A DNA stretch of 64,000 bases, from IMG/VR virus record IMGVR_UViG_3300010163_000010, positions 32,001-96,000 of that record, one strand, 5' to 3'. Position 1 is the first letter of the stretch. Each line of letters opens with the position of its first letter. Below the pieces are notes generated by a model that ran no database searches, was not told the origin of the DNA, and saw nothing but the letters and a program-made list of their open reading frames with translations. Source of the stretch: a virus (Duplodnaviria; Caudoviricetes). The position numbers and the translations under genes were made by a program. Positions 6,319 through 57,152 of this stretch are shown in pieces.

Positions 6319-6450
6319 GGAACCCACATTCTGCACCACGATTCACGGACATCGCTGCTAGATAACCGTCTGATAGTATAAGTGATCCATTCATTAGAAT
6401 GATATATACCGCCAGTGCCTTTGGATCGTAATAACTATCTGTCGCCGGCG
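6319..6450 (-). repeat. Dispersed in-frame variable cassette A (CGCCGGCG...GTGGGTTCC, 132 bp)
   Basis: Reads PPATDSYYDPKALAVYIILMNGSLILSDGYLAAMSVNRGAECGF with no stop; shares both boundary motifs with four other loci. Confidence 0.8.
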
Positions 6451-6950
6451 GGAGGTTCTTGCTGCCAGCAGTTGTCAGACCGATCCTCGCTGAAAGAGTT
6501 ATCTGCAGCATCATCCGGCTCAACAGGCGCACTCTCATCGAACGCACTTGTGTCTAACCAGTCGACAGGTGTGTAGAAGGAATGAACCTCTTTATCGCCC
6601 ATAACCCAGAAACCAGAGATTTCTGACCAGACAATCCACTGCCCAGGGCACACTACAAGCGGCCCAGAGACATCATCGTTGAGGATAATGTGAAGCTCAT
6701 CCAGTGCATTGTGACCATGGTCACACGCAATCTCCACATTGTCGACAGAAATCGTCTTTCCACCGGTAATGCAGCAAAAAGCATCCCCGAGCCACTCAAT
6801 CACCTGCTGCAGATTACCGGGGAAGTTTTCCTTGGTGCAAACGTACTGAATGCCAACCAGGTTTCCTTTGGGCACCAGTTTGAGAATCGACCTAAATCCC
6901 GTATCAGACTCAGGCCGCAGGTCTTTAATCCCATTCTCATCCAACTGCAT
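6435..6950 (-). CDS. Hypothetical protein
   Basis: 171-aa ORF with AAAGGAGA RBS; acidic tail whose last codons overlap cassette A. Confidence 0.8.
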   Translation of the reverse strand: MQLDENGIKDLRPESDTGFRSILKLVPKGNLVGIQYVCTKENFPGNLQQVIEWLGDAFCCITGGKTISVDNVEIACDHGHNALDELHIILNDDVSGPLVVCPGQWIVWSEISGFWVMGDKEVHSFYTPVDWLDTSAFDESAPVEPDDAADNSFSEDRSDNCWQQEPPAGDR

Positions 6951-6971
6951 TGTTGAAATCTCCTTTCTTAA

Positions 6972-7640
6972 TCAGAACTGGTAAAGTCCATATTCCTTCA
7001 TAAAATCATTCATGTCGCCTTTATAGGTCTCAATAGAACCATTGGTCTTACAGACCACAATCTTTATCAGATACTCGTACTTGGAGAAACCCAGATAGCC
7101 ATTGGCCATGATGTCGTACACGCCACTGATCCCTTGTCGATGAAAGTTAATGAACTGGAAGAGTTCGCCGAGATTACGAATCAGCCGCTCTTCCTGCCAA
7201 ACATCAATCTTGCTTCCATTCCCATCGTCATCAACAGCAACGAGTCTGGCTCCGATTATCATCTTGTCAATATGGGCAAGCTTGAAGTAGCTTTTCACCG
7301 GAATCTTGGTGTACATCATATCACCGGTATCGACCAGAACAAATCCATTGCTCTTCTCGTGATCTCCAGTCTTCATGAGCTTCAGCTCTTTAGAAGCCGC
7401 CTTATCCTGCCCAGACTCAATTTTCAGCTCACCACAGCCGTACACATTCTTCCAAACAACGAAGTTGCTGGAATTGGTGCACTTGAACGACGAGTGACCC
7501 TTAAACCGCTTCAGCCTCTTGTAGTACCAGTACTTCCAGGAGCTCTTCTTAAACTTAGGCTGCTTCGGTTTCTTTTTCTTGAGGTTATTCGGTTTTACGG
7601 GGATGAGCGTATAGAACCCATCCCCAGTGCTTGTACTCAT
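6972..7640 (-). CDS. Hypothetical protein, N-terminal DGFYTLIP motif; probable paralog of 7637-8263
   Basis: 222-aa ORF with ATGA overlap to the upstream gene; Lys-rich N-terminus. Confidence 0.8.
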   Translation of the reverse strand: MSTSTGDGFYTLIPVKPNNLKKKKPKQPKFKKSSWKYWYYKRLKRFKGHSSFKCTNSSNFVVWKNVYGCGELKIESGQDKAASKELKLMKTGDHEKSNGFVLVDTGDMMYTKIPVKSYFKLAHIDKMIIGARLVAVDDDGNGSKIDVWQEERLIRNLGELFQFINFHRQGISGVYDIMANGYLGFSKYEYLIKIVVCKTNGSIETYKGDMNDFMKEYGLYQF

Positions 7641-8263
7641 AGTATCACCTTCCCCTTATCGTCAAATTTGAGACCTAGTATGATCTGAAGGTTCCTGGGA
7701 TCGCCACAGCTGTGATCAAAGGTCATGTCGTCATAGATAATAAGAACCTTCTCAACATATTTGATTCGCTTGTATCCGCCATGCTTTCCCATCTTTATGT
7801 ATTTATCAAGGTTATCATACATCACAGTGTGAATCCAGTTTAATGCACGCTTGAGTTCCGCGGGAGTAGTAATCAGCAAGTACATACTGCTATTCTTAGA
7901 CGATCCTTCAAGACGTTCGATAACAATCGAATCCATACCACCGCCTTCAAGCAATACTTTTACGGAAAGCGCGATAGCCTTAACATGCCGCAATTTCTCA
8001 GAGCCATCTTTAATGGCCGAGAATTTAGTTCCAGTGGACCAATTAATATCATTGCAGACACTCTTCCAAGCTTTGTTCTGCCAGGACTTGGCGGCGTAGT
8101 TAATCTTGTAGTGCCTGTTGATATTAACGCTCGCACCAGCAACCGGTTTGGTGGTAGTCGGGAAAACCACGGTGTCCTCGACGATCCTGCACTCGCCAAT
8201 GGGATACTCCATCTGAATCTTGGGTCTGAGGATATAGAACCCGTCTTCGTCGTAGTTGTTCAT
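7637..8263 (-). CDS. Hypothetical protein, N-terminal DEDGFYILRP motif
   Basis: 208-aa ORF with GAAAGGAG RBS. Confidence 0.8.
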   Translation of the reverse strand: MNNYDEDGFYILRPKIQMEYPIGECRIVEDTVVFPTTTKPVAGASVNINRHYKINYAAKSWQNKAWKSVCNDINWSTGTKFSAIKDGSEKLRHVKAIALSVKVLLEGGGMDSIVIERLEGSSKNSSMYLLITTPAELKRALNWIHTVMYDNLDKYIKMGKHGGYKRIKYVEKVLIIYDDMTFDHSCGDPRNLQIILGLKFDDKGKVIL

Positions 8264-8402
8264 GGATATACTCCTTTCAATTCTGCATTATCTTAGTGTG
8301 ATATGATGAATCATAAAAGAATTACAATGTAGAAGCACTAACTGAAAATCGTTTTCTACCCTAAACTTCAAAGAAAGAACCGACATAAGTAAGTAAAATA
8401 TA

Positions 8403-8584
8403 TAGCAGCGAATATGCTGCCCTTCGAAGATGCCCTAAAAATGATTCTCGCTGAGAGCTGATGGGAGAGACCTTCAAGTCTCGGGAATCAGCTCGAACCT
8501 AAACTTTCTAATACGGGCAGCTTCGCTGTTAAAAAGTTTTAATATAGGGTTGGTTGCATGGAATTCCATTCCTATGCAACCAAC
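8403..8584. other. Structured non-coding element (nested hairpins) in an AT-rich divergent intergenic region
   Basis: 8403-8422 pairs with 8515-8531 and encloses hairpin 8455-8494; second hairpin 8549-8584; CCTAAA occurs three times nearby. Confidence 0.45.
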
Positions 8585-8776
8585 AACAAAAAAATAGAAG
8601 GACAAAATTTAGTAATTTATACACGACATCGATTCTAGTTGTGATAGTTGTAAAGGACTTTTTCGCTTCGTTCTCGGACTTTGACGTCCTTCCACTACGC
8701 TCGATTAAAATTTCATAAACACTAAAACTACGACTCCAGTCAACATAGACCGTTGGACTGGAGTAATTAAAGGAGC

Positions 8777-9340
8777 GTGAACATTTTGCTCATTGTACTT
8801 ACGTCTAATACTGATGAGGTCAAGAACATTCATCAGTATACAGAAAACTTCGTTGTCAATTACCTCAGTTGTGACCTTAGGCCCCCCTGCGCCGGCGAAA
8901 GTTACAATTTCAAGGTGTATCATCAGGATGGCATGTCCGTTGAGGAATACGATGAGTACACAAATGTCTCCGGGTATAACTACAAATTCATTCCGGTTCG
9001 TACGATAGACCAGGCATTGGATGATATCATCGACGGCATTATCGCCGCTGAAGATCGCTTAGACAGCACTAATGATCCTGATAATCCGAAAGAAGATCTT
9101 ATGGTTGTTTGTTGTTTCCCGAGACAATGGAACGCCCAGGCAGTGAAGTATATCAACAATGTCCTTACTCATAAGGCGGAAACTCAGATACTGGACATCT
9201 ATAAGCACTTCAAGATTACCAACGACAGTCAGCTTGAACAGATTGTCAAGAATCGACTGAATACGGAGTTCGTGTATCGTGATGATCCTATCGCCTATGG
9301 ATTTGCATTGTACAAAGCTCTCGGCGGTGATGTAATGTGA
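8777..9340 (+). CDS. Hypothetical protein
   Basis: 187-aa ORF, GTG start with AAAGGAG RBS. Confidence 0.8.
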   Translation: MNILLIVLTSNTDEVKNIHQYTENFVVNYLSCDLRPPCAGESYNFKVYHQDGMSVEEYDEYTNVSGYNYKFIPVRTIDQALDDIIDGIIAAEDRLDSTNDPDNPKEDLMVVCCFPRQWNAQAVKYINNVLTHKAETQILDIYKHFKITNDSQLEQIVKNRLNTEFVYRDDPIAYGFALYKALGGDVM

Positions 9341-10071
9341 GAATACCACATGTGCACCAGCTTGGGCCTGATACTCTTTCTGCGCCTACGTCTGAAATCA
9401 AGGTTGATATCAAACCGGAAGGATACATCGATGATCTCGGACTGTTTGAGGATAAGAAAGAGTACGTCAAGTTCATGATGAGACTCAAACAGATGATTCG
9501 TAACTCGTTTGAGTACACTGAGGCCATCAGCTTTCTCAAGAAGCAGTATGGGATGAACTATTGTGGTATTCATCCGAATCTGAAGATGTGTGATGGATTT
9601 CGAATTGAGCTGCACCACACGCCGCTGGTTTTGGAAGATTACTGCTCGATTATCATAAACAAGCGGATCAAGCGTGGAGAGACGCTGAAGATGTCAGCTA
9701 TCGCCAGTGAGGTAATGGAGGTTCATTATTTGGGTCTTGTTGGGTTGTACCCACTGTGTGAGCTGTGCCATCACTTTGCTCACTCTGCTCCTGGTGATGA
9801 GTTGTTCATTCCTATGGCTAACGTCTATGGGTATCCCGGTGAGTTCATGAACATTTATGGGGACTTTGTTCCGGCTGCCATGAAAACCAAGTGGGAGAAT
9901 GTGCAGGTGTTGAATAAGTCCTACACGATGATCAACAATGAACTTCCTTTAGAATTGCAGAAGCAATACATCTATATTGATGCCACCGAGGACGACGCCA
10001 TTGTTCCTGAGGGTATCAGTACGACAAAACTTGTCAAGTTCATAGATAAGCTGAATAAAAACGAGATATAG
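9337..10071 (+). CDS. HNH-like His/Cys metal-binding protein; paralog of 16524-17159
   Basis: YCGIH...IELHHTP...H...LCELCHHFAH pattern. Confidence 0.6.
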   Translation: MRIPHVHQLGPDTLSAPTSEIKVDIKPEGYIDDLGLFEDKKEYVKFMMRLKQMIRNSFEYTEAISFLKKQYGMNYCGIHPNLKMCDGFRIELHHTPLVLEDYCSIIINKRIKRGETLKMSAIASEVMEVHYLGLVGLYPLCELCHHFAHSAPGDELFIPMANVYGYPGEFMNIYGDFVPAAMKTKWENVQVLNKSYTMINNELPLELQKQYIYIDATEDDAIVPEGISTTKLVKFIDKLNKNEI

Positions 10072-10121
10072 AAATTGGACATGCGTGGTTAAGTACCGAG
10101 CCTGTCCAATTTTCTTTTGTC

Positions 10122-10139
10122 TATATACTATACAAGTGA
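10122..10139 (+). promoter_or_regulatory. Putative early promoter motif
   Basis: TATATACTATAcaagTGA upstream of RNase H. Confidence 0.7.
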
Positions 10140-10168
10140 ATAATGAACGGAGAGGATTGACGATAGAG

Positions 10169-10807
10169 ATGAGTCATAGGGTTGATTATCTACTGTTCAC
10201 TGACGCCTCGTGCCGGCGTGTTGACGATCGGCACTATTGCGCGTATGGAGACGTGATACTCAATACTGCAAATAACGAGTACACGAGCTTCGGAGGCCCG
10301 CTCGGGAATCAGAGCGTGGCGCACTGTGAAGCCTGGGCCATTTGGTCTGGGCTGCTGAAGACCAAGGAGATTATTGAGAGCCGTCCCGATAACAAACTCT
10401 GCAGAGTGCTGCTCATCAGCGATAGTAAGCTCAACGTTCTCGCGCTGAGCAAGTACTTGAGCAGCTGGGACATCAGTGACTGGAAGCATTGGAAGAAACA
10501 CAACTCCGAGGATCAGGTTAAGAATCAGGATCTGTACAGACGTATACTGGAACTGGTGTTCAATTGCGAACGAATGAAACTGAAGGTAACCCATATCAAT
10601 TCTCACCTTAAAGAAGACGACTGGCAGACGATCCAGGCTAAGTTGAGTAAGTTTGGTGTTACCGCAGATGAGAACACGTCGAAATTGTGTCTCAAGATGA
10701 ACGCGCTGGCTGACAGCATCGCTTCTGACATCAGTTGGGATCTCAGGTCTACAGATGATCCGGAAATGTTTATGCAGCTTGTGCCGCGCAGGCCAAGCAG
10801 TAAATAG
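10169..10807 (+). CDS. rnhA: Ribonuclease HI
   Basis: LFTDASC, CEAWAI, ISDSK, VKNQDL, HINSH, NALAD catalytic pattern; start moved to ATG 10169 after GGAGAGGA. Confidence 0.88.
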   Translation: MSHRVDYLLFTDASCRRVDDRHYCAYGDVILNTANNEYTSFGGPLGNQSVAHCEAWAIWSGLLKTKEIIESRPDNKLCRVLLISDSKLNVLALSKYLSSWDISDWKHWKKHNSEDQVKNQDLYRRILELVFNCERMKLKVTHINSHLKEDDWQTIQAKLSKFGVTADENTSKLCLKMNALADSIASDISWDLRSTDDPEMFMQLVPRRPSSK

Positions 10808-10815
10808 TTTCTACG

Positions 10816-10826
10816 CATATACTATA
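10816..10826 (+). promoter_or_regulatory. Putative early promoter motif
   Basis: CATATACTATA upstream of the 10852 gene. Confidence 0.6.
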
Positions 10827-10851
10827 TTTGGGTAAAGGAGGTGGAGTAACA

Positions 10852-11688: not shown

Positions 11689-11703
11689 TAAAGTAGATTC
11701 TGG

Positions 11704-11714
11704 TATATATTATA
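11704..11714 (+). promoter_or_regulatory. Putative early promoter motif
   Basis: TATATATTATA upstream of the kinase-like gene. Confidence 0.6.
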
Positions 11715-24623: not shown

Positions 24624-25047
24624 TGTTTATTTCCTCCTCTGTTACAATGGTATTTGGTGGTTCTGGTATGTTAAAAGTAGGCTCAGGCGTACTCATACCA
24701 CGAGTTGGATTGGGGTTGTCTCGAATCGTTTTAGCCCACGGGAAGTCATTATATTTGAACACGTTTTCGATCGTCTTAGTGATGAGGTAGAATCCGATCT
24801 GACCGATGATAATCGTACAGACGTTGCTAGACAAAGTCTCGGCGATAGCAATCTTATCCATGAACGCCAGTATGTAAGAACACCAGATCCAGAGAACACC
24901 GTTGATGGTATAGATCCAGATAAGCTGCTTAGATGTACTATTGAGAGAATATGCCAAGCGCTGTTTGAACGTTATCACCTTAGCCGCAGATATCTCTTCT
25001 CTTTTTTCTTCCCGTGATTTGAATAGCTTGATCTTCATGGGAATCAC
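24565..25047 (-). CDS. Two-TM membrane protein (holin-like)
   Basis: Two hydrophobic segments (LIWIYTINGVLWIWCSYILA; VCTIIIGQIGFYLI); adjacent to the holin. Confidence 0.6.
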   Translation of the reverse strand: MIPMKIKLFKSREEKREEISAAKVITFKQRLAYSLNSTSKQLIWIYTINGVLWIWCSYILAFMDKIAIAETLSSNVCTIIIGQIGFYLITKTIENVFKYNDFPWAKTIRDNPNPTRGMSTPEPTFNIPEPPNTIVTEEEINNGGSADQYFDTGTTDDACG

Positions 25048-27209
25048 TGACTTTCTGTATAGTATTGAGGCGCCCTATTCGTATCGAGAGGTTCTTGCTT
25101 GATAATGGTAAACTGAATAATGTCTCCGATCGCAAGGTCGAATCCAGCATGGAACCTGATGCCTTCATTACACGTATTGTAATCAAGCTCTTCGCGAAGA
25201 ACGGTTTGTCCGTAGTTTACCAGAAGTTTATCAAGACCGAAGACATAATCAGGCACAGTAATCGTAAGTTCTGTACCGGGAGCAAGTGGTGCCGCCGGTT
25301 GATGTTCATATACAAACAGCTTGGTAACAACATTGCCGATACGTGCTTTAACTGCATTGATCTGATCGTTGAGATATGTTTCAAGGTCAGCAACTCCACA
25401 CTGAGTAGATGCAATCCATTCAAACTTGCTGGTAGCGTTTCCGCTGTTGCCCACATAGATGAATTTCTCATCCGCGTGCATCCAGATATCGCCAATGACC
25501 GTATAGTTACCAGTTGCAGGGTCGACATTGGGAGGCTCGATAGGCCGGACATGAATCATTGTAGGTGTGATTCCAAGATTATGTTCAATAGCAACCTCTG
25601 GAATATATGTTGATCCATCCCATGCAGTAAGAGGAGCACCACCGATAAAGTTGCTTTCGCCTTTGTGTTCGATGTACGTCGGATACCTCTTGGTTATATC
25701 GATCTGGCTATGGCTCAATGAGAACCAAGTGTGCATGGCCTCATTGTACACAAGCCAGATATACGATCCAGCTACATAGCCGCCACGAACAGGAGAACCG
25801 AAACAGTCGGCAATAGGCTCAGCAGGTCCATCGATGCATTTGGCAGTTGGTGCGGTTTCCAGGTCGTATTTTAACTTTACCAGTAAGCAGTAATGATCGC
25901 ACAGCTGATCGTATGTGATATCGAGATGAATATGTTGTCCAGATGTTCCCGTAGCATCAATGACGTTGAAGTTAGGGACATCCATCATGGCGCCTTGGAG
26001 GATCGTGAAATACAGATGATCGCCTTTGTTAAGTTCTGTTGTAAGCAGAACTACAGCGCCCATGACGTCAATGTCATAATCGACATCGTACACCAGCATA
26101 TGATTATCTCGAATGACTGTGAGTTCATCCCGTCGTTTATTGTAGTTTGGAACCGGAATAACGGTTGTATGATCGCGATCGGCCTCATATTCCTCATGAA
26201 GAACCTTCAGCGCATACCTGTAGTTACCAGTAGCTCCAAAGTTATTAGGAACAATCGATCCGTTGGATTCAATGAATTCTGTTACCTTCCAGACTATAAC
26301 TTCTCCCGCGGTGAGAGGGAACTTGAACTTAATGACTTTCTCATCATCACTCAATGTATAGTCCAGGTTGTTTCGAAGTATCGTTTGGCCGTAGTTGATT
26401 TCGTATGATTGTGCACCAATAGCTGCAACAGGGACATCCAGTTCATCGGTATCTTTCTCAACGGTTACTTTGTATTCCTTGGTTTCGAGATCATACTTTA
26501 AGGTTCCTCTCTTGGCAGTGGTAATATACGAGGTAATCTTGAAGAAGATGATTTCGCCTTCCATGAAACTGATACCATTGAGGAATCTGATACCGCCTTT
26601 AACGCTGGGCACATAGTCATAATCAATCCCGAATCTGAAGATGGTTTGCCCGTAGTTAATCGTGATCTTATCGATGTTGTGGTCAAATCCTGGAACGTCG
26701 ATAACATACTGGCCATTGTATAGGATCTCGTAAGCATACTCCCGCTCGACAGGAAGAACCACTTTTGTCACATCACTGTATATATCGCTGCTGAGCAGTA
26801 TCCAAGAGTCAAGCTTTTCGCCATAGACCATGAACATAGTAGTTCCCGGCTTCTGACCACCAGGGATTCTGTCACCAGAACCGCTAATGATAGGTTTCGG
26901 GCCGCTGTTGTTGAAGTCGAGAGTAGGTTCACACTCCACGTTAGTGTGAACAGTCAACAACAGGGGAAACCCATCACAAAGTACCTTATCGTGGATATGT
27001 GCTTCAAGGTGCCTGTAAGTTCCGTAGCTGCGAGTGTGATTCAGATGACGCAGCGGACTGGCGACATGCTTATCGTATTGGTGCAAATAGTCTTCAAGCA
27101 CTCCGCCGTTATCGCGCCTTAGAATGTTACTTGTAACTGTTTGCGGAAACATTGTATCCCAAATTTTACGCTTTACATTCCATTGGCGCATGCGGATATA
27201 CCTATTCAT
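25044..27209 (-). CDS. Virion tail/baseplate-associated protein with repeated NYGQT..R..DY beta domains
   Basis: Three INYGQT/VNYGQT repeats plus one degenerate copy; late-type promoter upstream. Confidence 0.6.
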   Translation of the reverse strand: MNRYIRMRQWNVKRKIWDTMFPQTVTSNILRRDNGGVLEDYLHQYDKHVASPLRHLNHTRSYGTYRHLEAHIHDKVLCDGFPLLLTVHTNVECEPTLDFNNSGPKPIISGSGDRIPGGQKPGTTMFMVYGEKLDSWILLSSDIYSDVTKVVLPVEREYAYEILYNGQYVIDVPGFDHNIDKITINYGQTIFRFGIDYDYVPSVKGGIRFLNGISFMEGEIIFFKITSYITTAKRGTLKYDLETKEYKVTVEKDTDELDVPVAAIGAQSYEINYGQTILRNNLDYTLSDDEKVIKFKFPLTAGEVIVWKVTEFIESNGSIVPNNFGATGNYRYALKVLHEEYEADRDHTTVIPVPNYNKRRDELTVIRDNHMLVYDVDYDIDVMGAVVLLTTELNKGDHLYFTILQGAMMDVPNFNVIDATGTSGQHIHLDITYDQLCDHYCLLVKLKYDLETAPTAKCIDGPAEPIADCFGSPVRGGYVAGSYIWLVYNEAMHTWFSLSHSQIDITKRYPTYIEHKGESNFIGGAPLTAWDGSTYIPEVAIEHNLGITPTMIHVRPIEPPNVDPATGNYTVIGDIWMHADEKFIYVGNSGNATSKFEWIASTQCGVADLETYLNDQINAVKARIGNVVTKLFVYEHQPAAPLAPGTELTITVPDYVFGLDKLLVNYGQTVLREELDYNTCNEGIRFHAGFDLAIGDIIQFTIIKQEPLDTNRAPQYYTESQ

Positions 27210-27252: not shown

Positions 27253-27363
27253 GGAACCCACCGTGATGCATTGGAGTTGGAGGAGCAAATATAAAGCCAT
27301 ATATACCATGCTCATCAACTATAAAAATTTCATCAGTATCAAACCCATAGTCCTCCGCCGGCG
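27253..27363 (-). repeat. Dispersed in-frame variable cassette B (111 bp)
   Basis: Reads SPAEDYGFDTDEIFIVDEHGIYGFIFAPPTPMHHGGFR; shares the palindromic CGCCGGCG with cassette B'. Confidence 0.8.
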
Positions 27364-27460
27364 ACAATTACGGAATATAGTGCAGTTATTGCTATATGTG
27401 CAGGGATAAGTAACTATTACACATATGTAAATAACCCGCCAACTGCACCTGGTGGGTTCC
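27356..27460 (+). repeat. Dispersed in-frame variable cassette B' (105 bp)
   Basis: Reads PPATITEYSAVIAICAGISNYYTYVNNPPTAPGGFR*. Confidence 0.8.
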
Positions 27461-27470: not shown

Positions 27471-27496
27471 TAAAAGCGGGGCCATCAGGCCCCGCA
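27471..27496 (-). terminator. Terminator of the tail-fibre gene
   Basis: GCGGGGCC/GGCCCCGC stem with T run on the minus strand. Confidence 0.7.
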
Positions 27497-27507: not shown

Positions 27508-29526
27508 TTAGCCCACCGGAGTCTCGGTAGTCTCAACCGGTACCAGTACCAGCTGGCCAACCTGGGGATCGGTGACGTCGGACAGGCTGTTCACAATCAG
27601 AGGCACACGCAGTGCCAGCTCGTTGAACGTAGTCTGATCGACGTAAGTGCTGTCCAGCTCGGCCAGCGTCTTGCCGCCAACACTGGTAGCATCACCGGCG
27701 ATATTCACATGCAGCTTTTCGTCGTCGGCAATCTTGACGATCTTGCCAGCCACGTCGGTGTTGCTGTCGCTGGGAATGCCGTCATCGGTCAGCAGGTCGC
27801 CGCCGATAGCATCAGTGATACCGTAGCCAGCCAGAGTAGTCGGAGTATTGTCGATGCTGCTCCAGTCGACGTATTTGCCGGTCTTCAGGTATACGGTTGC
27901 ATACTCGGTAACGGCGCCGTCGGGAGTGTCAGGATCAGTCTTGGTAACAATCCATACACCATGGACCTGGCCGGCATTAGCAGGATCATACTCGATGACC
28001 ACATCACCCGGGTTGACCATGGTGTTCGTAACCCAGGTAGAGGGAGCATCGGTAGTCTCCTTGGTAACAGCCTTGGTGATATCGGAGGAGAGGTTGTCCT
28101 TGGAGATGATGCCCTTCAGCTTGCTGACATCAAGCTCCGTGATGCCGCTGCCGCCCTTGAGCGCAGCAATGTCACCCAGAACCGTATCGGCTGTATCGGC
28201 ATCGCCCAGAGTAGTCTGAATATTGGTGACCTTCTCAACCAGGCCGGCAACCGCTGCGGTGCCTGTATCAGGATCAGCCGGCTTGCCGTTCAGAATCTGG
28301 TCGATCGCGGTCTTGTGCTCATCAAACGTGGTGCTGTCGACGGCATCGGTAATACCATAGCCGACCAGAGTAGTGGGCTTATTGGTAACGCCGGACCACG
28401 CAACAGCGGAGGCCTCGCCGGCGGTATAGGGCAGGTACGCATCTTTCCAGTCGGAGGTACCAAGCTTGGTCTCGTCGACCACATAGTACATCATACCGGC
28501 CTTGGTGATATTGCCCTCGCCGTCGGTCTCATCAGCGATCTTAACAGTATCACCCTTCTGTACCTGAGTAGTGGTCAGGCCAGCCAGATCGGCCTCAGAT
28601 GTGATGACATGCATCTCAGACAGGGCCGCCTTGGGCACAACGGCCACGTCAAGGATGCCGGTCTTGATCCAGGAGGCGTCAGAATTCTTCAGGTCGTTCT
28701 GGAGGGTGGCGATATCCTTCTTGATAGTGCCGTCTGTGTCGGCATCGCCGATAGTGTCATTGATAGCATCGATATCAGTCTTCAGCGCCAGGTCAGCCAG
28801 CTTCTTGCCGCCGACAGAGCCAGCGTCGCCGGTGATATCGAAGTCCAGTTTGCCGTCGGCATTGGTCTGGGTAATCTTACCAGCCGCAGTCCAGTCCTCG
28901 GCGTCGCCGGCATTCTTGGCACCATGATCAACGATGGAGGCGGAGCCAACCGCATCGGTGATGCCATAACCGGCCAGAGTAGTCGGAGTATTGACGATAC
29001 GATCCCACTTAACGTCAGAGGCAGCATCAGTCAGCGCGGCAAACTCCACTGTGGGAGGGTCACCCTCGGCAGCACCGGCAGTGACATTCTTGACCACATG
29101 GGTGGATACGACATTGCCCTCGCTGTCTTTGATCTGAACGATGTCGCCGATGTGCACGGAGGCCTTGTCCACAGCATCCAGAGAGGCAGCATCGACCACC
29201 TTACCGCCCACATCGTCAGGCAGGTTGCTGCGATCGATTACGCCGGTGATCTTGGACGCCTCAACCTCGGTAACACCGGAGCCGTCCTCCAGCTTCGGCA
29301 GAACCTCATGGTCGATTGTGGCAACGCGGTTGATGAGGGAAATCAGCAGATCGGAGACGTTATCGCCGGCCTCAAGAACGGTACCGAAGCCGAACGGTTT
29401 GGTCTCGAGCTTTTCGATAGTGGAGGCTTTGCCCAGGCCCACGATGTCCGCAGACGTGCCGAGATAGATAGAGTCCCAATCGGTGCCATTGAATCGCCGA
29501 ATCGTAGATTTCAGAATAGTAGCCAT
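27508..29526 (-). CDS. Tail fibre-like protein
   Basis: Three W..[IV].N[TK]PTTL.GYGITDA tail-fibre repeats; two I.GDA.SVGGK.LA.L repeats; strong codon bias. Confidence 0.8.
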   Translation of the reverse strand: MATILKSTIRRFNGTDWDSIYLGTSADIVGLGKASTIEKLETKPFGFGTVLEAGDNVSDLLISLINRVATIDHEVLPKLEDGSGVTEVEASKITGVIDRSNLPDDVGGKVVDAASLDAVDKASVHIGDIVQIKDSEGNVVSTHVVKNVTAGAAEGDPPTVEFAALTDAASDVKWDRIVNTPTTLAGYGITDAVGSASIVDHGAKNAGDAEDWTAAGKITQTNADGKLDFDITGDAGSVGGKKLADLALKTDIDAINDTIGDADTDGTIKKDIATLQNDLKNSDASWIKTGILDVAVVPKAALSEMHVITSEADLAGLTTTQVQKGDTVKIADETDGEGNITKAGMMYYVVDETKLGTSDWKDAYLPYTAGEASAVAWSGVTNKPTTLVGYGITDAVDSTTFDEHKTAIDQILNGKPADPDTGTAAVAGLVEKVTNIQTTLGDADTADTVLGDIAALKGGSGITELDVSKLKGIISKDNLSSDITKAVTKETTDAPSTWVTNTMVNPGDVVIEYDPANAGQVHGVWIVTKTDPDTPDGAVTEYATVYLKTGKYVDWSSIDNTPTTLAGYGITDAIGGDLLTDDGIPSDSNTDVAGKIVKIADDEKLHVNIAGDATSVGGKTLAELDSTYVDQTTFNELALRVPLIVNSLSDVTDPQVGQLVLVPVETTETPVG

Positions 29527-30938: not shown

Positions 30939-33900
30939 CTATTCGTCTTCGTAGTTTGCGTCAATAGCGTACGGTGCATTCCCGTGATGAATGAGTCCAG
31001 GAATGACAACCTTAGCGTCTCGTTCGTTTATGCCGACAAGATCGGTATCGGCAATATCATGGAACTTACGCTTGAAATCCTTGACCCATTCTTCAGCTTC
31101 ATGCTTGTTCTGCTCAAGGTAATCAAGCATTGCTTTCAATCTGCCGTTGAAGATATACTCTTCTAGCAGAACGTCATAGTAACCACGCATGGTATACTCT
31201 GTGATATGAATGGGTATCATTCGTGCATAGTTTCGATTCGGCCGCTGGATACTCTCGGATGTATCAGGTTCATTCCAGTATGCGATGCAAGCTTTCTTAG
31301 CCTTGCTCAGCCATTCATCTTTCTTGCTGTAGAAGATATCAACGCAGCGAATGATTTCTTTGAAATCAAGCAGCAGAATCTTTCCGGCTGTAATTTCCTG
31401 GTATTTATCCCTGGATACATAGTGACCATTGACGAACAGCATCATCCGATTCTGAATGAAAGCTACTTCTCTGAGACTGTAGTCTATGACCATTCGATAT
31501 GCGGATTCACGTTCACGCACATCAGTGTCAGGAGATTCATAATCGATATGAAGCCTCCCGATATTGCTTGAGAACATTACAGAGAAATCGGTGGTGTCTA
31601 TCAATGCCGTAGAGATCACATGAGAACGTCCTGTATACAGACGCTCGAGTCTTAGGTCAAATCGATCAGGCCCGGTGACCAGACGTTTGTAAAAGACATT
31701 TACGTTCTCCTGTTTGATTGCCCCGGAGTTCAAGAGGTCCGCAACAATGCTGATGTATCGAATACCGAGTTTCCCTCTGAAGTTCATTACAACATCGTCG
31801 AACAGGAATGCTGTAACGTTATCATGATCGAACTGAACGTGTATGAGTCGCTCATTGACTCGGATAATGATAGATTCTGTATCAGAGTAGCAAATCTTAT
31901 CATCGATGTCATCCAGGAACTCAAACCACACATCATTCTCTTCAGGGGCCTCTGCATCGAAACTTTCTCCCATGTGAATCTTGTGCAGCTTATTGTCTGT
32001 TCGCGGCTTAAACAGTTCAACATCGCTCGCGGTTCCATGAGCTCCATAGTCGAATACTACTGTAGCATTTTTGCCATCAAAGAATCCTTTGGGCATATAA
32101 TAGTAAGCTTCTGTCAGCGGGTGACTGATGATCTCCTGGATGTAGTCAGGCAAGGTCAGTGCTGGGATATCAATCCACAAATCTCCTACATTCATCGGGT
32201 CGGGTTCAAACTCGGAGTAAATGTATGTGAGATTGTGTTTCTCCGCACGACTGATGAGGACATTGCTGGCATTCTCTGGCACAGCTAACCAGTAGTCACC
32301 GATGTCAACATCGAACGGTTCGTCATCAGACATGATATACTTGATCGGTTTGGATCTCTTAGTGGGATCAGTGGATCCTTGCCGCATTTCGGTATTTTTA
32401 TTGTAGATGTAGGCTGTGAGAAGTACTTTATAGACAGCCATATTCAGGCTCTGCTCGTTCATCTGATCAAGATAGTTGTTCCACAGATCTACAACTTGCC
32501 TGCGATACATGGAATCAGGATCATCAATGTAGCTGGTAATCAGCTCTTTCTTTTGTTTGACCGTTAGAGCTGCGATCTCCGCTCCGGTAATGGTGATGCC
32601 AGTCTCTTCATCCATATAGGAGATATTGCTAAGAGAGTATTCTTCCTCGACATCAACTCGATCAATACCATCGAGAAGTTCATTGATAACATCATCCATA
32701 TCCGGATTATCTTCGCCGGTATCTGCGATAATATCTCCAACGGCAGGATCGGCTGACATGGGTCCGCTATGGACTTCGTACTCATCGATAACCTCTGTAG
32801 TATCCATCTCTGGATTTTCAATGGCCGAATCATTCATCTGTGGATTATCAGGCAGTTTGCCATAATCGATCTGGTGATAAACTTTAACAGCCGGATCATC
32901 CACTCCATCTCCAGACTGAATGACCAGATACTTCTGATGATGCTTGCTGAGTTTGTAGTATGTGAACAGCAGGTCTGTATATCTTTCCGGACCTTCATCG
33001 GGTTTTAAACCAAGAGAGTACATACCTTCTTTGAGATCTTCGGGAAGATTATACGGGTCAAGACCAAATGACTCGATAACTTCGATCGTGTCCTGATTGA
33101 ATACTTCAGGGACAACGTTGACCAGTAACTCGTACCACATATTCGTATCGTGTTCATTCGGAGGAGCGGTTGATACACGTACGAATTGATCTTCATTGTA
33201 ATCATATACCTTACCACGAAGAATCAAAAGATTTCGATAGAATCGATTCATCTTAATATGGAGTCTGGCCAAGTTCTCTTCATCGATATATTCACCGAGG
33301 TTTGTGATCTGTGTATCTTGTTCAGCGTTGAATTTGATCAGAGTCAGTCCATCGATGTCAATCTCCGGGTCGAGTATTACATACCGGAGAATCCCGATCT
33401 TATCCTCAATGTATTCAGTATGCTTATCAAATAGCCTCATGACTTCATAGTCGCTGTAGATCATTCCATTATAGAAGAGTATGTCTCTATGTGACTCAAA
33501 CGGTACGAGACTGACAATACCATAGACTGCGTTTCCATCGATTCTGTAGATGTTTGTCTTAATGAATGTAGGTTTACCAAAGATATGGTTATCACACATC
33601 AGAAAGTCTGATTGTTCATTGCAGAAGAACGGGAATTTTTCCCAAGCTCTATAGCAGTATGCGGCTATACGACTGAACTTATCCAGAATAGTCACATCAT
33701 CATCTGCAGCACGGATTTCTTCATCGATCGGTTTCAGATTGTTTAAATATTCGTTGTCTGTATTGTATGGATCTTCAATGTAATCAAATTCCGGATATGT
33801 GACTAGTCGAGATACTTCGGGCATTGGGACATAGGAACTATCATCGGTGAATACACGAACGATGCAATCCTTATCCGCAGTAATGCACGGATAGAACATT

Positions 33901-39476: not shown

Positions 39477-39504
39477 TATATATTACTAAAGGAGTGTGCG
39501 ATTT

Positions 39505-40785
39505 ATGAATTCCATTACGGTAGGGGACCTGTACTTCTTGAAGAGCCCTATTATCAGCACTAGTCACAGTATCGAGCAGGAGAAGAAATTGAGCTACCTC
39601 CTGGGAACAGTGTCCACGAGGCCGGCTGTTGTTATCCGTGCTCCCGCGTGGTGGGATGAGTTCGAGACCGTTACGGTTATCCCCGCTATGAGCAAGGGCA
39701 ACCCCGCCTTGAAGATGCATCTGACTGATCGGTATGGGCGGATGTCCAAAGCCGAGTACCCGTTTATCCCGCACAACCCGTATACGGTTCCGGTGTCCAG
39801 GTTGGGTAAGTATATCGGCTCTTTGGACAGAGAGGAGCTTAAGGAGCTCTTATATGCTTTTACGTGGATCCATGATGCCACCATGCAGGAAAACCCGACC
39901 TGTAGAGTCCCGTCTATCTACCAGCACGTAAGAGCTAAAAAGATACCGCCGGTCAATAACTGGTTAGATCATCACGACATAAGAGCAGAAACGGAGCTCG
40001 TCGTCGATGAAAATAATATCTTGACTTGTAAGGAGGATCTGACGATGAATGGATTCAAGATCATTCCTGCCGACACCCCTGTCGAGAAGCAGGAACGCCC
40101 GAAAACCGTCGTAACCAAAGCTACCGCGTTCAAACCGAGAGCGCGTGATGAGTCCAAGGAGTTCCCGCCGTCGACGTTCAGCGATGAGACCCTGCACCAG
40201 GTCGCTTCCCGGTTTAATATTAGCGCTGGCTACTATAACAACACGATCACCAAGCGGGATCCGAGCGTTCTGCGGCCTGACGAGATTGATACCATCCGTA
40301 AGAATCTCACCGCAAGAGAGTTTGATGAGATGGCCCAGTACTATAAGACCTTGACGCCCTTCGATGCGTTTGTCCTCGGGCCTCGTCTGCCCACCAGGGT
40401 CCTCATCAACATCACCGGGTTCAGCTACGATAACACTCTGGTGCTGAAGTCTCTGTGCAACTATATGCGCGATATGGATACCGAGGAATACAAAACCAGA
40501 ATCGTCAACCGCGCAGTGAGCAAACTGACAAAGACTCAGGCACCTAAGCCTGCTGATCAATCGGCAGTCACGGAATCCACATCTCCGGATTACAAGCAAT
40601 ACCTGGCTCGGGTGAAGCCGTGGCTCAATCCGAAGAAGATCACTAAGATGCCGCCCAGTATGGCTGAGCTGTTCGTGCAGATTCCGATGGGCATGGTTAA
40701 GCGTGCGTACCATGGCACGCAGTTCGATCAGAAGTACGCTGCAGCTATGGAACTCTACAGCAAGACTACTTCCGGGAATAAGTAA
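39505..40785 (+). CDS. Protein with N-terminal PemK/MazF-like domain and long C-terminal extension
   Basis: GDLYFL..RPAVVI..TVTVIPAMS..TVPVSRLGKYIGSL..EEL pattern of the MazF fold. Confidence 0.65.
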   Translation: MNSITVGDLYFLKSPIISTSHSIEQEKKLSYLLGTVSTRPAVVIRAPAWWDEFETVTVIPAMSKGNPALKMHLTDRYGRMSKAEYPFIPHNPYTVPVSRLGKYIGSLDREELKELLYAFTWIHDATMQENPTCRVPSIYQHVRAKKIPPVNNWLDHHDIRAETELVVDENNILTCKEDLTMNGFKIIPADTPVEKQERPKTVVTKATAFKPRARDESKEFPPSTFSDETLHQVASRFNISAGYYNNTITKRDPSVLRPDEIDTIRKNLTAREFDEMAQYYKTLTPFDAFVLGPRLPTRVLINITGFSYDNTLVLKSLCNYMRDMDTEEYKTRIVNRAVSKLTKTQAPKPADQSAVTESTSPDYKQYLARVKPWLNPKKITKMPPSMAELFVQIPMGMVKRAYHGTQFDQKYAAAMELYSKTTSGNK

Positions 40786-41129: not shown

Positions 41130-41148
41130 TAGCAGCAGGAACGAGATG

Positions 41149-41180
41149 GCCCGGGGAAATCCCCGGGCCGTTTCTTTTTC
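41149..41180 (+). terminator. Intrinsic terminator
   Basis: GGCCCGGGGA/TCCCCGGGCC followed by T run. Confidence 0.85.
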
Positions 41181-41193
41181 CTGTGATGGGCAC

Positions 41194-41307
41194 GGAACCC
41201 ACTAGAACTTCGATAATCGACACTGCTTATCATACCATCAACGTAGTGATTAGGACCTTCATGTATTACAATGTTGTATACCCCACAGATAGCATCTGCC
41301 GCCGGCG
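41194..41307 (-). repeat. Dispersed in-frame variable cassette C (114 bp)
   Basis: Reads SPAADAICGVYNIVIHEGPNHYVDGMISSVDYRSSSGFR. Confidence 0.8.
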
Positions 41308-41371
41308 AGTGAAAATTTTATTTTTATTTTTGATTGTATACGGATCATCTTTATAAAGGATGTGATGCGTT

Positions 41372-50061: not shown

Positions 50062-50073
50062 ACATGCATACAA

Positions 50074-52579: not shown

Positions 52580-52593
52580 GAGGAGGAAGACTA

Positions 52594-52950
52594 ATGAAGA
52601 TTGTCGATAAGAACGTCACCAGGAACAGCATTGTCTCGATCACTGTGTTGTTGGAGAGTCCCACGGATAAGGCCGCTTACGACAAGATCGATGTGGTCAA
52701 GACTTGCCCGCACTGCGGCAAGCCGACCAAGCCGGCTCCGGACTCCTACAAGATCCTGATTCACAACCCGCTTACCAAGCCCATCCCGGGCAGTCCGGTT
52801 GACCTCGGGGAGATCCACACCAAGTGCTCGTCGTGTGGCAAGGAGATCGTTGATGCATCGCAGTATGATCTCTCGGCGTTCAACGAGGTCACCCAGTTCC
52901 TTGATCAGCTGAGGGATGCGGCTAAGAATAAAGTGAAAAGCCGGAGGTAG
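52594..52950 (+). CDS. Small zinc-finger protein between gyrB and gyrA
   Basis: CPHC and CSSC pairs; GAGGAGG RBS. Confidence 0.8.
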   Translation: MKIVDKNVTRNSIVSITVLLESPTDKAAYDKIDVVKTCPHCGKPTKPAPDSYKILIHNPLTKPIPGSPVDLGEIHTKCSSCGKEIVDASQYDLSAFNEVTQFLDQLRDAAKNKVKSRR

Positions 52951-52960
52951 ACGTTAAGTT

Positions 52961-55603
52961 ATGGCAAAACGCAAGAAACAGGAACAGAGCAGTGGACCAA
53001 TTAAACTCATACCGATTCCTGGCGGTCGGTATGAGCAGTTCCTGCACAGGAAACGTCAGAAGGAGATCAGGCAGATCCCCAAAGACTCGTATGACTATCT
53101 GACTACTTTGGTGGATATCAACGGCAGTGTTAACATCGAAGATATGTCGGAGGTTGGTGTCGGGGATTACACCCTCTCCAAAGGTCTTATCCACGCGATG
53201 AATATGAACGTTGGCCGGCAGATTCCGTGGATTGAGGATGGTCTCAAATCTGTTGAGCGCCGGGCACTGTATGCAATGTGGGTTGGCGGCTACTACGGCA
53301 ATAAGAGCATCAAAGTTGCATCTGTTGTAGGTGCCATGATTGAGAAGTATTACCCTCATGGCGACAGAGCGCCGGCTGACACCATATATCGTCTGGGACG
53401 ATCCAAGACTATGATGTTGCCGTATGTGCGGCCCAAAGGCAACTATGGTAACATGCAGGATTTGGAACCGGCTGCATCAAGATATGCTGAAGCATCTTTG
53501 AGTGATTATGCCAGAGATTGCTTCTTTGGTGATATTGGGCCCAGGAGACCGCTCTATGATGAGCGTGACACCTATGAGTACACCAGCAAAGAGCCTATCT
53601 ATCTGATCAGCCGGTATCCGAATATTCTGATGCAATGGAACTTGGGTATTGGCAAAGGAGCTGCCAGTTGGCTCGGTGCTTTCAATAGCATTGAATTGAT
53701 GAAGGCGACTCTGGATCTAATGAAAGACCCCAATGCGGTGATTGATATTTATCCGGATGCCCCAGTGCCGGTAAATATTGTGAATAAGGATGAACTTGCA
53801 GGGTGCTTTGATCGAGCTAAGTTCAAAGTGATGATGCGTGCTCCTTATCACACAATAGTAGATCAGCGCCGGTCTGGAAACAAGATTGAGGACAAGTTAG
53901 CTATTGTCTTCACGGCACTGCCTCTTGGCGTAGTTGGTAATCAGATCGCAGATGAGATAACCCGGATCAAGAAAGATGAAGCCAAGAAGGCATCCAAGCG
54001 ACTCCCCGAAGTGCTGAATGTTGAGATTGCTGTGGACGATGTATCCCCAGGTGGCATCGAGATCATTGTGGAGTATGAGCGTGGGTATGATCCGCATGTG
54101 TTGGCCGAAAAGCTCTATAAGTCCACATCGTTGGGGAAGACAATCGGCGTCAACTACAATCTGATCATTGATAATATGCCGGTTGTCAAAACGCCTCGGG
54201 AAATACTGCTGATTTGGATTAATCAGCGCTATGATCAGAAGCGTCGGTATTTTCATCAGCTGGTTATACAATCGGCTATTGATCGTGCCACCTATGATGC
54301 CCTGGTAATGGTTCTTAGCACTTCTGATGCGACCGATAAGGCCATTGCGCTGATCAGGAAATCCAAAGACAAGACTGCCGCAATCGAAGCTTTGCAGAAA
54401 GCATTCAGCATGACCAACTTCCAGGCTCGGCAGGTGATCAAGATCCCTCTTGGTAACCTGTCCAAAATGAGCATCACCGAGGTTATTCAGAAGCGTGATG
54501 AGGCGATTAAGTCCTATAAGCACTATCGGAAAATGCTCAGTGACGATGGATCTATCCAGAAGGCGGTCTATGATGAGGTTGTGGCTGGCATGAAGAAATA
54601 TGGAAAGCCGCGAGTCGCGAACCTTATGAATTTGGAGAGCGAGGGTGTTGGATCGGATACTGATACAAAGTATTTGATCTATAATTCCGAGTATTACTTC
54701 TGTGTGGATAAGCCGGAAGATTTACCTGGAATCATTGATTCGTTGAACAACACCTATCAAATGGTTCAGGTTCAGAATTCTGATAACGTCCTGGTGTTTA
54801 CCCGTGCAGGTAAGTTAAAGATTCTTAATGGCTATGCATTTAATCTGACGGATACCGGAATTGCTGTCAGTACCCTCGGGATCAAGGATATCGCTAGTAT
54901 CGTGAACGGCAACCCAACCAGAGAATATATGGATCTGGTGATGGTTACTGAGCAGGGATACGGCAAGCGCATATCATTTGCCGAGGCGACCAAGTCCGTT
55001 AAGAGCAGCGTCATTAACCTGAGCACCGGAGATTCCCTTGCAGCGGTGATTCCGGTGAAGACAAATAATCACCCGGATTCGATTATTGGGATGATTCAGG
55101 GAGACAAGATGTATTATTTGCGTCTTGACAGCTTCCCGGTCTACAAGAGAGCCTCTGCCGGCAATCGACTCATCAAGGGTGTAAAAGATCTTCAGATCAC
55201 TGGAGCAGTATACTTTGACGCCACCGATGGGTCGAACTATATGCTGATCTACGGGGAATCTGGATATATCAAGCTTCTTGATATGGCGTTCCTGTCGTTT
55301 GCTAAGCGCGGCAATAACTCGGTGTCCCTTCAAGGTAAGAAGATTATCGGCGCTGCGCTGATTCACGGCAAACCTAAAGCGTTGTCGAATCATGACCCCG
55401 AGGCAGATACACGGTCGGAGTTTGACGACAGCGTTATGTTGTACTGGGGCAAGGGCAAACTGGAAATCAACTTGCAGATCGGCAAGACTGTGCTGTTCAA
55501 AGCTGCTACCGGCGAGACACAGAAGTTCAAGATGTCAACATCGATTGGCAGCCCGGTAAAAGTTCTGAAGGTATCCAAAAACGAGTGGTACCATATTCAG
55601 TAG
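52961..55603 (+). CDS. gyrA: Type IIA topoisomerase A subunit (GyrA/ParC-like) with beta-pinwheel CTD
   Basis: DGLKSVERR, KVASVVG, YPHGD, GNYG, AASRY (catalytic Tyr), P.IL..GIG.G, CTD repeats T..G..K. Confidence 0.93.
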   Translation: MAKRKKQEQSSGPIKLIPIPGGRYEQFLHRKRQKEIRQIPKDSYDYLTTLVDINGSVNIEDMSEVGVGDYTLSKGLIHAMNMNVGRQIPWIEDGLKSVERRALYAMWVGGYYGNKSIKVASVVGAMIEKYYPHGDRAPADTIYRLGRSKTMMLPYVRPKGNYGNMQDLEPAASRYAEASLSDYARDCFFGDIGPRRPLYDERDTYEYTSKEPIYLISRYPNILMQWNLGIGKGAASWLGAFNSIELMKATLDLMKDPNAVIDIYPDAPVPVNIVNKDELAGCFDRAKFKVMMRAPYHTIVDQRRSGNKIEDKLAIVFTALPLGVVGNQIADEITRIKKDEAKKASKRLPEVLNVEIAVDDVSPGGIEIIVEYERGYDPHVLAEKLYKSTSLGKTIGVNYNLIIDNMPVVKTPREILLIWINQRYDQKRRYFHQLVIQSAIDRATYDALVMVLSTSDATDKAIALIRKSKDKTAAIEALQKAFSMTNFQARQVIKIPLGNLSKMSITEVIQKRDEAIKSYKHYRKMLSDDGSIQKAVYDEVVAGMKKYGKPRVANLMNLESEGVGSDTDTKYLIYNSEYYFCVDKPEDLPGIIDSLNNTYQMVQVQNSDNVLVFTRAGKLKILNGYAFNLTDTGIAVSTLGIKDIASIVNGNPTREYMDLVMVTEQGYGKRISFAEATKSVKSSVINLSTGDSLAAVIPVKTNNHPDSIIGMIQGDKMYYLRLDSFPVYKRASAGNRLIKGVKDLQITGAVYFDATDGSNYMLIYGESGYIKLLDMAFLSFAKRGNNSVSLQGKKIIGAALIHGKPKALSNHDPEADTRSEFDDSVMLYWGKGKLEINLQIGKTVLFKAATGETQKFKMSTSIGSPVKVLKVSKNEWYHIQ

Positions 55604-55618
55604 AGAGAATATTCGAGA

Positions 55619-55678
55619 TATATACTATATCGGTGAAGTGAGGGGACGTGTTCAGTAATATGCTGGGCACGTCCCCTC
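55619..55678 (+). promoter_or_regulatory. Putative early promoter plus 5' hairpin
   Basis: TATATACTATAtcggTGA then GAGGGGACGTG/CACGTCCCCTC stem. Confidence 0.7.
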
Positions 55679-55702
55679 CTTACATTTACAACAGGAGGTT
55701 TC

Positions 55703-57043
55703 ATGATGAAAGGCATTATCATTAACAGCCAGACCAGTGCGGCTATGCTCTCCACGTTTTTGGAGGCGGCTGTACCGCATCTGAAGGTGGAGAACATCTC
55801 CGCCGGCCAGAAGTACTATACCTTGGCTGTCGACAATGGGGTTCTGCGGCTGAACCACGGTGTCAAGGTTGGCATTGAGCAGTGGGGCACCAAGCTCGAC
55901 TCCGACTTCGCCAAGCTGCCGCTGTTGCCTCTGTCGATGGGCCAGGAGATGGTAGAGAAGGTCATCAGTAACTCCAAGGGCGGCATGTTCGATGTGAACA
56001 GCCCCGACCAGCTGTATGAGTACTACTCAGTGATCTCTGAGAATATGATGATCGTGGTTGATCCTAAGCTCGCGGCTGGCGTTTGCGGAGGCAAATTCAG
56101 GATCTATCGGATTCCGGCGAGTATTGTTGATAGTGAGTGGGCTGTGGTATCGGTCTTGCGTTATGAGGGAGCTACCGTCGGGACTCAGCAGTATAAGACG
56201 TTTGGTGTTGAGTGCTATGACGAAGAGGATCTTTGCTGTATTGATAGGTGGCTTGCCATCAACTGCGGTGCTCGTACGATTGAGGAGGCCACGGGTATCA
56301 AGCCCATTTACGAGGGCGACTCTCTGCTCAGTGCATACTATGCCTTGCAGCTTATCACTGATGCTGGGCAATATGAACCCAATGATACCGAGATTGAGTA
56401 TCACTTCGGCCCCGGTTGGGACAATGCGCATCAGGCCAAGAAATTAAGCCTTGCCATTGGGATGGTACCCAAAATGTGCGGGTACACCCATAATGATGAC
56501 GAGGGAACTGGTCGTGCGTTTATGGGTATGCTCTATAGCGAGGATGGCATCGTTGCCCAGTATATCGCGGGTTATCACATGCCCACCGAGGAGCAGCTCA
56601 ATCAGCTCTATAACATGCATTACCAGATTGTGGATTTGATGGTTGCTGGTAAGTTGGAAAAGACCATGCCGGATTACACCGACAAGTTCGAGTCGTATAT
56701 CCAGTATACCGGCACTAACCTCTCTAGCTGCATTGCTATGTTAGTGGACCTTACCGATGATGCTGTATCTGCAGAAGACAACGTGGATATCGATGAGCGG
56801 GAATCCAATCCTGGTAATGCTGCCATTGCGCAGCTTGAACGCTGCGGATGCTCGGAGGTCTACTGCAACTTTGACATCGGCAATACCGAACATATCACTG
56901 GCGCGGTGTGCACGCCTGACGACGAGGACGACGAGGACGAGCCGGAGAAGTTCGTGAGGTCTGCGTGCCCGTTTATGTATCCCTGCTACGGGATTAACTG
57001 CAAGGCCATCGAGGCCAGGGACGATGAGGACGAAGGCGACTGA
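55703..57043 (+). CDS. Hypothetical acidic protein with Cys-rich C-terminus
   Basis: 446 aa, AGGAGGT RBS. Confidence 0.85.
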   Translation: MMKGIIINSQTSAAMLSTFLEAAVPHLKVENISAGQKYYTLAVDNGVLRLNHGVKVGIEQWGTKLDSDFAKLPLLPLSMGQEMVEKVISNSKGGMFDVNSPDQLYEYYSVISENMMIVVDPKLAAGVCGGKFRIYRIPASIVDSEWAVVSVLRYEGATVGTQQYKTFGVECYDEEDLCCIDRWLAINCGARTIEEATGIKPIYEGDSLLSAYYALQLITDAGQYEPNDTEIEYHFGPGWDNAHQAKKLSLAIGMVPKMCGYTHNDDEGTGRAFMGMLYSEDGIVAQYIAGYHMPTEEQLNQLYNMHYQIVDLMVAGKLEKTMPDYTDKFESYIQYTGTNLSSCIAMLVDLTDDAVSAEDNVDIDERESNPGNAAIAQLERCGCSEVYCNFDIGNTEHITGAVCTPDDEDDEDEPEKFVRSACPFMYPCYGINCKAIEARDDEDEGD

Positions 57044-57047
57044 TACC

Positions 57048-57152
57048 GGAACCCACCAGCTTCAGTAGCCAGAATTCCATTCTGTACGGTTGATCCTGCT
57101 GGCGTTGTCATCGGAGGAATCGGTATTCCCTTACTATAAATCGTCGCCGGCG
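57048..57152 (-). repeat. Dispersed in-frame variable cassette D (105 bp)
   Basis: Reads PPATIYSKGIPIPPMTTPAGSTVQNGILATEAGGFR; sits between the stop codon at 57043 and that gene's terminator. Confidence 0.8.

Follow-up and report, generated by a model that had tools for sequence, protein, structure and literature searches.

Cassette inventory and placement

The window analysed here is a 64,000-nt stretch (bases 32,001-96,000) of contig G000, a linear virus record of 105,182 bp (IMG/VR IMGVR_UViG_3300010163_000010) with an estimated completeness of 41%, which is part of an uncultured jumbo phage related to PBS1 and AR9. Its intergenic gaps and gene ends harbor short cassettes that run from a left motif, CGCCGGCG, to a right motif, GTGGGTTC. 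A preliminary description made from the window alone had listed five of them (A, B, B', C and D), and their coordinates, strands and lengths (132, 111, 105, 114 and 105 bp) were reproduced, as were the stop-free frame reading [PS]PA…[GSC]GF[RL] and the bases T, G, G, A and G preceding GT GGG at the five loci. Twelve cassettes were found in the whole contig: the five in the window, six in an array and one further single copy (Table 1). They measure 99 to 171 bp, all lengths being multiples of three, are all open in one common frame and, as single copies or back-to-back pairs, are spread across 83 kb.

The cassettes lie in either orientation between a stop codon and a terminator or just beyond the terminator, in agreement with the intergenic or gene-end location first described; one refinement concerns cassette A, which overlaps the last codons and the stop of an open reading frame (ORF 6950-6435). 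A terminator-like hairpin (~6245-6279) follows cassette A and another (27476-27495) lies by B/B', a pair whose ends form 12-bp inverted repeats. Array pairs are spaced 8 and 14 nt apart, and one cassette outside the window ends in GTGGGTTCT, a single-base change in the right end. If cassette A were excised with its edge CC kept, the acidic tail of ORF 6950-6435 would end in PF-stop, which suggests a precise insertion of the cassette into the gene end.

Table 1. Coordinates of the cassettes and associated features (window positions unless marked G000)
Feature	Position	Strand	Description
Cassette A	6319..6450	(-)	132 bp long, unpaired; core C-CGCCGGCG-A (P-face)
ORF hosting the end of cassette A	6435..6950	(-)	171 amino acids; last codons and stop inside cassette A
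Cassette B	27253..27363	(-)	111 bp long; core T-CGCCGGCG-G (S-face); left partner in back-to-back pair
Common asymmetric 10-mer core of B/B'	27355..27364	both strands	read outward each way
Cassette B'	27356..27460	(+)	105 bp; P-face; right half of pair with B
Flank past right site of C	41135..41193	(-)	~60 nt with terminator hairpin
Cassette C	41194..41307	(-)	114 bp; S-face
TCACT, 5 bases before core of C	41308..41312	(-)	same 5 bases in last array slot
Cassette D	57048..57152	(-)	105 bp; P-face; between stop of ORF 55703-57043 and terminator of that ORF
Cassette array	G000 6,108-6,870		six cassettes as three back-to-back pairs, palindromic core common to each pair
Extra single cassette outside window	G000 31,230-31,334		

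Coding character of the cassettes

A chance origin of the cassette family is excluded. Motif pairs with a gap of 82-112 numbered four in the window against a mean of 0.01 in window shuffles, and none occurred in 60 order-3 Markov genomes, compared with 12 in the contig. All 12 GTGGGTTC words of the contig fall within cassettes, and apart from the single-base change mentioned above no decayed cassette copy was found in the contig. The probability that 12/12 interiors are stop-free is ~10^-13.5 in base shuffles, and for 12 lengths to share one class modulo 3 it is 5.6e-6. Stops are nearly always present in the five remaining frames. The first reading as silent coding cassettes was examined on the seven additional copies, which might have shown random frames or stops, and all seven keep the frame. 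None of the 12 cassettes has an in-frame start codon with a ribosome-binding site, as had been noted for the first five. No long ORF on the contig contains a cassette and, beyond GGG TTC C, the cassettes continue into unrelated flank where the downstream stops vary. The cassettes are thereby shown to be start-less and under coding selection in one frame.

The interiors are mutually unrelated (mean pairwise z 0.3; longest common interior word 10 nt), and no repeat of any interior was found elsewhere in the contig. They have a lower GC content than the genome (39% versus 46%), T at 46% of third codon positions with NNT codons frequent, and only 9 of 407 codons that an A-to-N change would turn into a stop. 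In the encoded peptides G, I, Y, S, T and D are abundant and K, Q and R scarce (G 11 versus 7.9% in phage genes, Y 8 versus 4.0%, W 2 versus 0.8%, K 1.5 versus 8.0%), a composition resembling that of binding loops. No match to the peptides was found in Pfam, the protein atlas or annotated phages, and none to tRNA or Rfam at the nucleotide level; tRNA, Rfam and CRISPR-like readings were discarded on account of the two different end sites and the coding frame.

A directional left site and two slots with different content

In frame, the cassettes begin with [SP]PA and end with xGT GGG TTC C. The left site is an asymmetric 10-mer, CCGCCGGCGA / TCGCCGGCGG, present in all eight cassette cores on either strand. 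Its two strands offer two coding faces: six cassettes begin with PPA followed by A and six with SPA followed by G, and both faces are represented in every pair. If the palindrome were mixed freely, such a pattern would arise with a probability of ~1/256. As 8/8 cores are directional, any exchange respects the direction of the left site, which suggests two receiver slots. Two orphan copies of the 10-mer, at window positions -2689 and 28416, were rejected as cassette sites and taken for chance occurrences, each being located within a conserved gene and having no right site.

Cassette C and the last cassette of the array, 66 kb apart, are nearly identical for ~60 nt past the right site, including the terminator hairpin, and have the same TCACT before the core, which in the array is the start of the partner cassette. 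Despite these common flanks, their interiors (114 and 99 bp) are unrelated. On the simplest reading, a slot was duplicated and what it held was afterwards replaced en bloc between both sites, which hints that silent slots change content too.

Diversity-generating retroelements in relatives

Four related records (G002, G003, G004 and G006:C66) carry a classical diversity-generating retroelement (DGR) with an Avd-like gene, an AAC-rich template and a reverse transcriptase (RT)-like gene; the Pfam RT match was obtained for G002, G003 and G004, and G006:C66 has the same layout. As a positive control, all mismatches counted between template and variable repeat fall at template A (13/13, 17/17 and 15/15, or 45/45). 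The targets are tail proteins with a Pfam DUF6273-type C-type-lectin domain, whose variable region starts with [ST][SAP]P after a WW motif and ends with GGG TTY CGN CC (GFRP). A predicted model of one relative's target domain (predicted local distance difference test score 97.5) resembles C-type-lectin folds and places the variable segment in a beta-hairpin exposed at the surface and flanked by the WW and GFRP strands, in line with what has been described for DUF6273 targets (PMC10743442). The right site of the cassettes is the conserved 3' end of the relatives' template and variable repeats. At the other end, the left site lies near the variable-region boundary. The link to C-type-lectin variable regions ending in GFR, first drawn from the length and the peptide end, is therefore borne out, since the relatives' variable regions span nearly the same boundaries.

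The cassettes themselves have no counterpart in the relatives. A de-novo motif-pair detector that recovers the system in G000 found none in G002, G003, G004 or G006:C66, and neither the orthologous gap at B/B' nor the gap upstream of the next conserved gene after D contains a cassette in relatives; the library is thus lineage-specific. At the D position, the gap before the orthologue of window 57257 holds in L126, L215, L218 and G002 a conserved acidic ORF of ~10-20 amino acids that starts with MD behind a strong ribosome-binding site.

No DUF6273 match, no RT and no PF00239 recombinase match were found on contig G000, and PF00589 gave no more than a match of 11.8 bits, below threshold, that falls within a conserved gene. 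These absences are uninformative, since in G002 the DGR and its target lie at 224-231 kb and 0-3 kb and a serine resolvase at 11 kb, positions that belong to the part missing from G000. Two distinct variable-region alleles are found at the overlapping ends of the G002 contig (L138:72-330 and the end of L149); each departs from the template at adenines alone, and on this comparison the G002 population has an active DGR. In G006:C66 (124,440-124,550; L192), the template has ~8 AAC codons in a row where the variable repeat has ~4, a length change apparently produced by repeat slippage.

Fit to the lectin loop and search for a receiver gene

Jointly, the 12 cassettes fit the hairpin profile of the family better than shuffles do (P 0.0025), and cassette C scores highest against the variable-region profile of the DUF6273 type (21 bits, z 6.5). 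For the assignment to the lectin slot, the interiors carry less weight than the ends and the genomic context. An alignment of the cassettes with lectin domains using MAFFT was uninformative.

No receiver with the motif pair was found among ~215 family proteins. P0297 was considered and rejected; it has a PPA-containing 39-amino-acid loop encoded by different DNA and lies on a 1.2-kb contig. Motif-pair matches in other viral and metagenome contigs were likewise set aside, as those inspected had random frames, were mostly GC-rich and came from no related phage. Loci of multi-domain lectin proteins are without cassettes, and one of them is a classical multi-target DGR. In an ENA contig (L220), a single DGR template is accompanied by eight or more lectin-type domains spread over at least four genes, one of which encodes a five-domain protein of 1,339 amino acids. 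Several glycine-rich (PF21722-like) tail-protein segments with a common end motif and several DUF6273-type domains per genome occur in G003 (175-217 kb) and G004, and on sequence grounds these proteins appear to form a modular adhesin family.

Proposed exchange of loops and alternative explanations

We consider it probable that the cassettes form a silent library of complete alternative ligand-binding loops that are exchanged by DNA recombination. They would serve one or two tail or adhesin genes with a C-type-lectin fold (DUF6273-type) in the unsequenced 59% of the genome, with a product reading …W-x-x-[S/P]PA–loop–xGFRP…. Such a receiver gene would carry CCGCCGGCGA or TCGCCGGCGG, followed in frame by GTGGGTTCC, and the left 10-mer and the right 9-mer would bound a double crossover or gene conversion that replaces the whole loop; the two faces of the 10-mer probably serve two receiver slots. 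Candidate enzymes are the phage recombination proteins or a recombinase encoded in the missing part. Whole-loop jumps in sequence and length would then replace or supplement the point-mutation DGR of the relatives.

Several observations weigh against this proposal. For eleven of the 12 interiors the match to the family profile is weak or absent (scores from -5 to 7, against a median of 15 for real loops), and the cassette loops are longer (34-57 amino acids versus mostly 28-36 in 203 family loops). Because the interiors fit the family profile modestly and are longer, the receiver probably belongs to a related subfamily of the DUF6273-type family. The exact left motif of the cassettes starts none of ~200 family loops, in which SP, SS and SA are commonest. 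The common flank of the C and array slots could have been copied without any interior swap, and ends of 9-10 bp are little for homologous recombination. Finally, no receiver gene with the motif pair, no recombinase and no switching event were seen on the 41%-complete contig. The overall interpretation of the preliminary description thus stood as regards silent coding cassettes and the lectin link, but the expressed gene that it expected is not on this contig and no swap was seen. The cassette family is a real and statistically very strong feature; its role is well supported but unproven, and the decisive gene lies off the contig.

The cassettes could instead be alternative templates, or captured cDNA products, of an RT encoded in the missing part, homing through the right site as an initiation-of-mutagenic-homing (IMH)-like end. 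This would fit the presence of a DGR acting on this lectin domain in 4/4 relatives that have the region, the identity of the right site with the 3' end of their template and variable repeats, the frequent NNT codons and rare stop-prone codons noted above, and the change in AAC-repeat length in one relative's template. It is nevertheless unlikely. There is no A-rich template and no cassette is an A-to-N copy of another, so a classical DGR origin did not hold; among ordered cassette pairs none exceeds 45% identity at non-A positions, and the interiors have no fixed non-A positions in common. The flank past the right site is not conserved, unlike a priming spacer, array units are only 8-14 nt apart, and cassette orientation relative to the neighbor genes is mixed. 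Lysine is equally scarce in real loops of the family. The N-GT codon, first read as fitting adenine-templated variation, agrees with adenine mutagenesis, but the edge of a conserved site accounts for it just as well. We regard it as quite improbable that the cassettes, although coding, are no working lectin library but discarded former loops from misplaced homing, or donors for another protein family. The weak profile scores and greater length of most interiors, their AT-richness and their scattered sites in gaps that are cassette-free in relatives would agree with such an origin. All 12, however, keep the frame and both ends and no decayed copies were found, unlike inert relics unless all are very recent, and the match of the right end, in DNA and protein, is specific to the family that the relatives diversify.

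Very unlikely, in our view, is a two-site shufflon, in which a site-specific invertase would act on inverted right sites, and likewise on left sites, and flip the segment enclosed by them, so that two successive inversions swap a stored and an expressed loop. Its appeal lies in pairs bounded by inverted right sites (the 12-bp inverted repeats at B/B'), in the resemblance of the directional 10-mer to a crossover site, in the occurrence of pairs in both orientations and in the serine resolvase that relatives encode in the missing region. That resolvase is also found in cassette-free relatives, the contig encodes no credible recombinase, and 51/51 orthologues keep strand and order with G002 though sites facing opposite ways are separated by 20-50 kb. 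Scarcely credible are small peptides translated on their own, miniature inverted-repeat elements and bipartite DNA or RNA elements without a coding role, although intergenic sites by terminators and pairs with inverted ends would suit them: the conservation of frame and absence of stops (P ~1e-13 and 6e-6) has no reason in a non-coding element, for which Rfam and tRNA matches are also missing, and small peptides are contradicted by the lack of starts with ribosome-binding sites and by the varying downstream stops.

Relation to known systems

Two routes by which phages vary receptor-binding proteins are known: point hypermutation through DGRs and the flipping of whole tips in shufflons. Mtd of Bordetella phage BPP-1 belongs to a DGR with a C-type-lectin target. 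In gut phages, the tentaclins belong to DGRs with C-type-lectin/DUF6273 targets (PMC10743442). The cassettes resemble DGR variable regions in size (~100-150 bp), in the position of the hairpin between WW..SP and GFRP and in the 3' end sequence. They differ in having no template repeat and no adenine-specific relation, in being dispersed and start-less with 12 unrelated interiors, and in the lack of an RT on the contig; since the 12 interiors differ in length and sequence, they cannot share one template. The early remark that length spread and interior divergence are unlike a single-template DGR therefore applies to the whole set (99-171 bp, no common interior).

Neisseria pilE/pilS is a case of silent-cassette gene conversion. 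Silent donors are likewise known for Treponema tprK, where short conserved repeats of 4 bp lie at the joints (PMC8480903, PMC10063172), and for Borrelia vlsE, whose silent cassettes are ~90% identical to vlsE (PMC11499132). Like the donors of these systems, the cassettes are multiple, silent, start-less and in frame, and they would probably serve the variable part of one surface protein. Unlike vls and pil donors they are mutually unrelated, with no mosaic interiors and no homology of that kind, and unlike all three systems they occur in a virus and have fixed end sites of two kinds, a core with two faces and scattered back-to-back pairs. Whereas donors remain unchanged in such conversion, the two slots described above suggest that the silent positions of the cassettes also change content.

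Among shufflons of phage receptor-binding proteins, Rin is accompanied by Min, Gin and Cin. The Rin shufflon of Bifidobacterium prophages uses an 11-bp site, rix (PMC6109161). As in Rin-type shufflons, the cassettes are start-less coding pieces behind a short asymmetric site, some of them back to back, with inverted right sites. Rin-type pieces, however, are whole C-termini with one site and an adjoining invertase, whereas the cassettes correspond to an internal loop of 30-55 amino acids, have two sites, are dispersed and do not end in a stop of their own as shufflon pieces do. On the contig there is neither an adjoining recombinase nor any net inversion relative to G002. The system is accordingly filed under none of the three classes: the homology seen in vls and pil is absent, the template and adenine relations of DGRs are not found, and an internal loop with two site types and no adjacent recombinase does not match a shufflon.

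The system may, though we put this forward tentatively, represent a DGR variable-region slot turned, in a jumbo-phage lineage, into a two-ended exchange slot, with a library of pre-selected, mutually unrelated loops kept throughout the genome, a single 10-bp site whose two faces serve two receptor-binding genes and an unrecognised recombination route acting on ends of 9-10 bp. No description of such a system in a virus was found in the literature searched, which covers few subscription journals. If the proposal is true, it would amount to viral V-segment-like swapping outside DGRs, shufflons and vls-type conversion, and to a third route of receptor-binding variation in which loop length and sequence change in one step among variants already tested by selection. 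It would also raise the questions of which enzyme recombines at such short ends and where the unrelated loops originate. Start-less cassettes of 100 bp are invisible to gene callers and DGR finders and may be widely missed; the combined test for motif pair and frame finds them.

Genomic setting and neighboring genes

Contig G000 encodes a phage RNA polymerase beta subunit and a 4,552-amino-acid tape-measure-like protein, and tubulin and gyrase are encoded at syntenic positions in relatives. The nearest annotated relatives (PBS1, AR9, phiR1-37 and Staphylococcus jumbo phages) show ~25-28% identity, uncultured relatives up to 50-77%, and at 90% identity each of the six G000 proteins found in a protein collection is a singleton. 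Contig G000 and positions 36-151 kb of G002 are collinear, with all 51 orthologues in the same order and on the same strand.

Fibre-like structural genes flank the B/B' pair (window 27508-29526 (-) and 25044-27209 (-)). Internal repeats occur in the former, and its N-terminus is similar to that of the relatives' DUF6273 tail proteins; no lectin domain and no cassette slot were found in it. The gene at window 39496-40785 (+) encodes 429 amino acids, with a PemK/MazF-like domain at the N-terminus (Pfam PF02452, E 2.5e-6), and is conserved in G002. The genes at window 6972-8263 encode short DG[FY]xxLx[PK] motifs near the protein termini, and the same motif occurs in the tails of the DGR RTs of G002 and G003 and in that of the Avd-like protein of G006.

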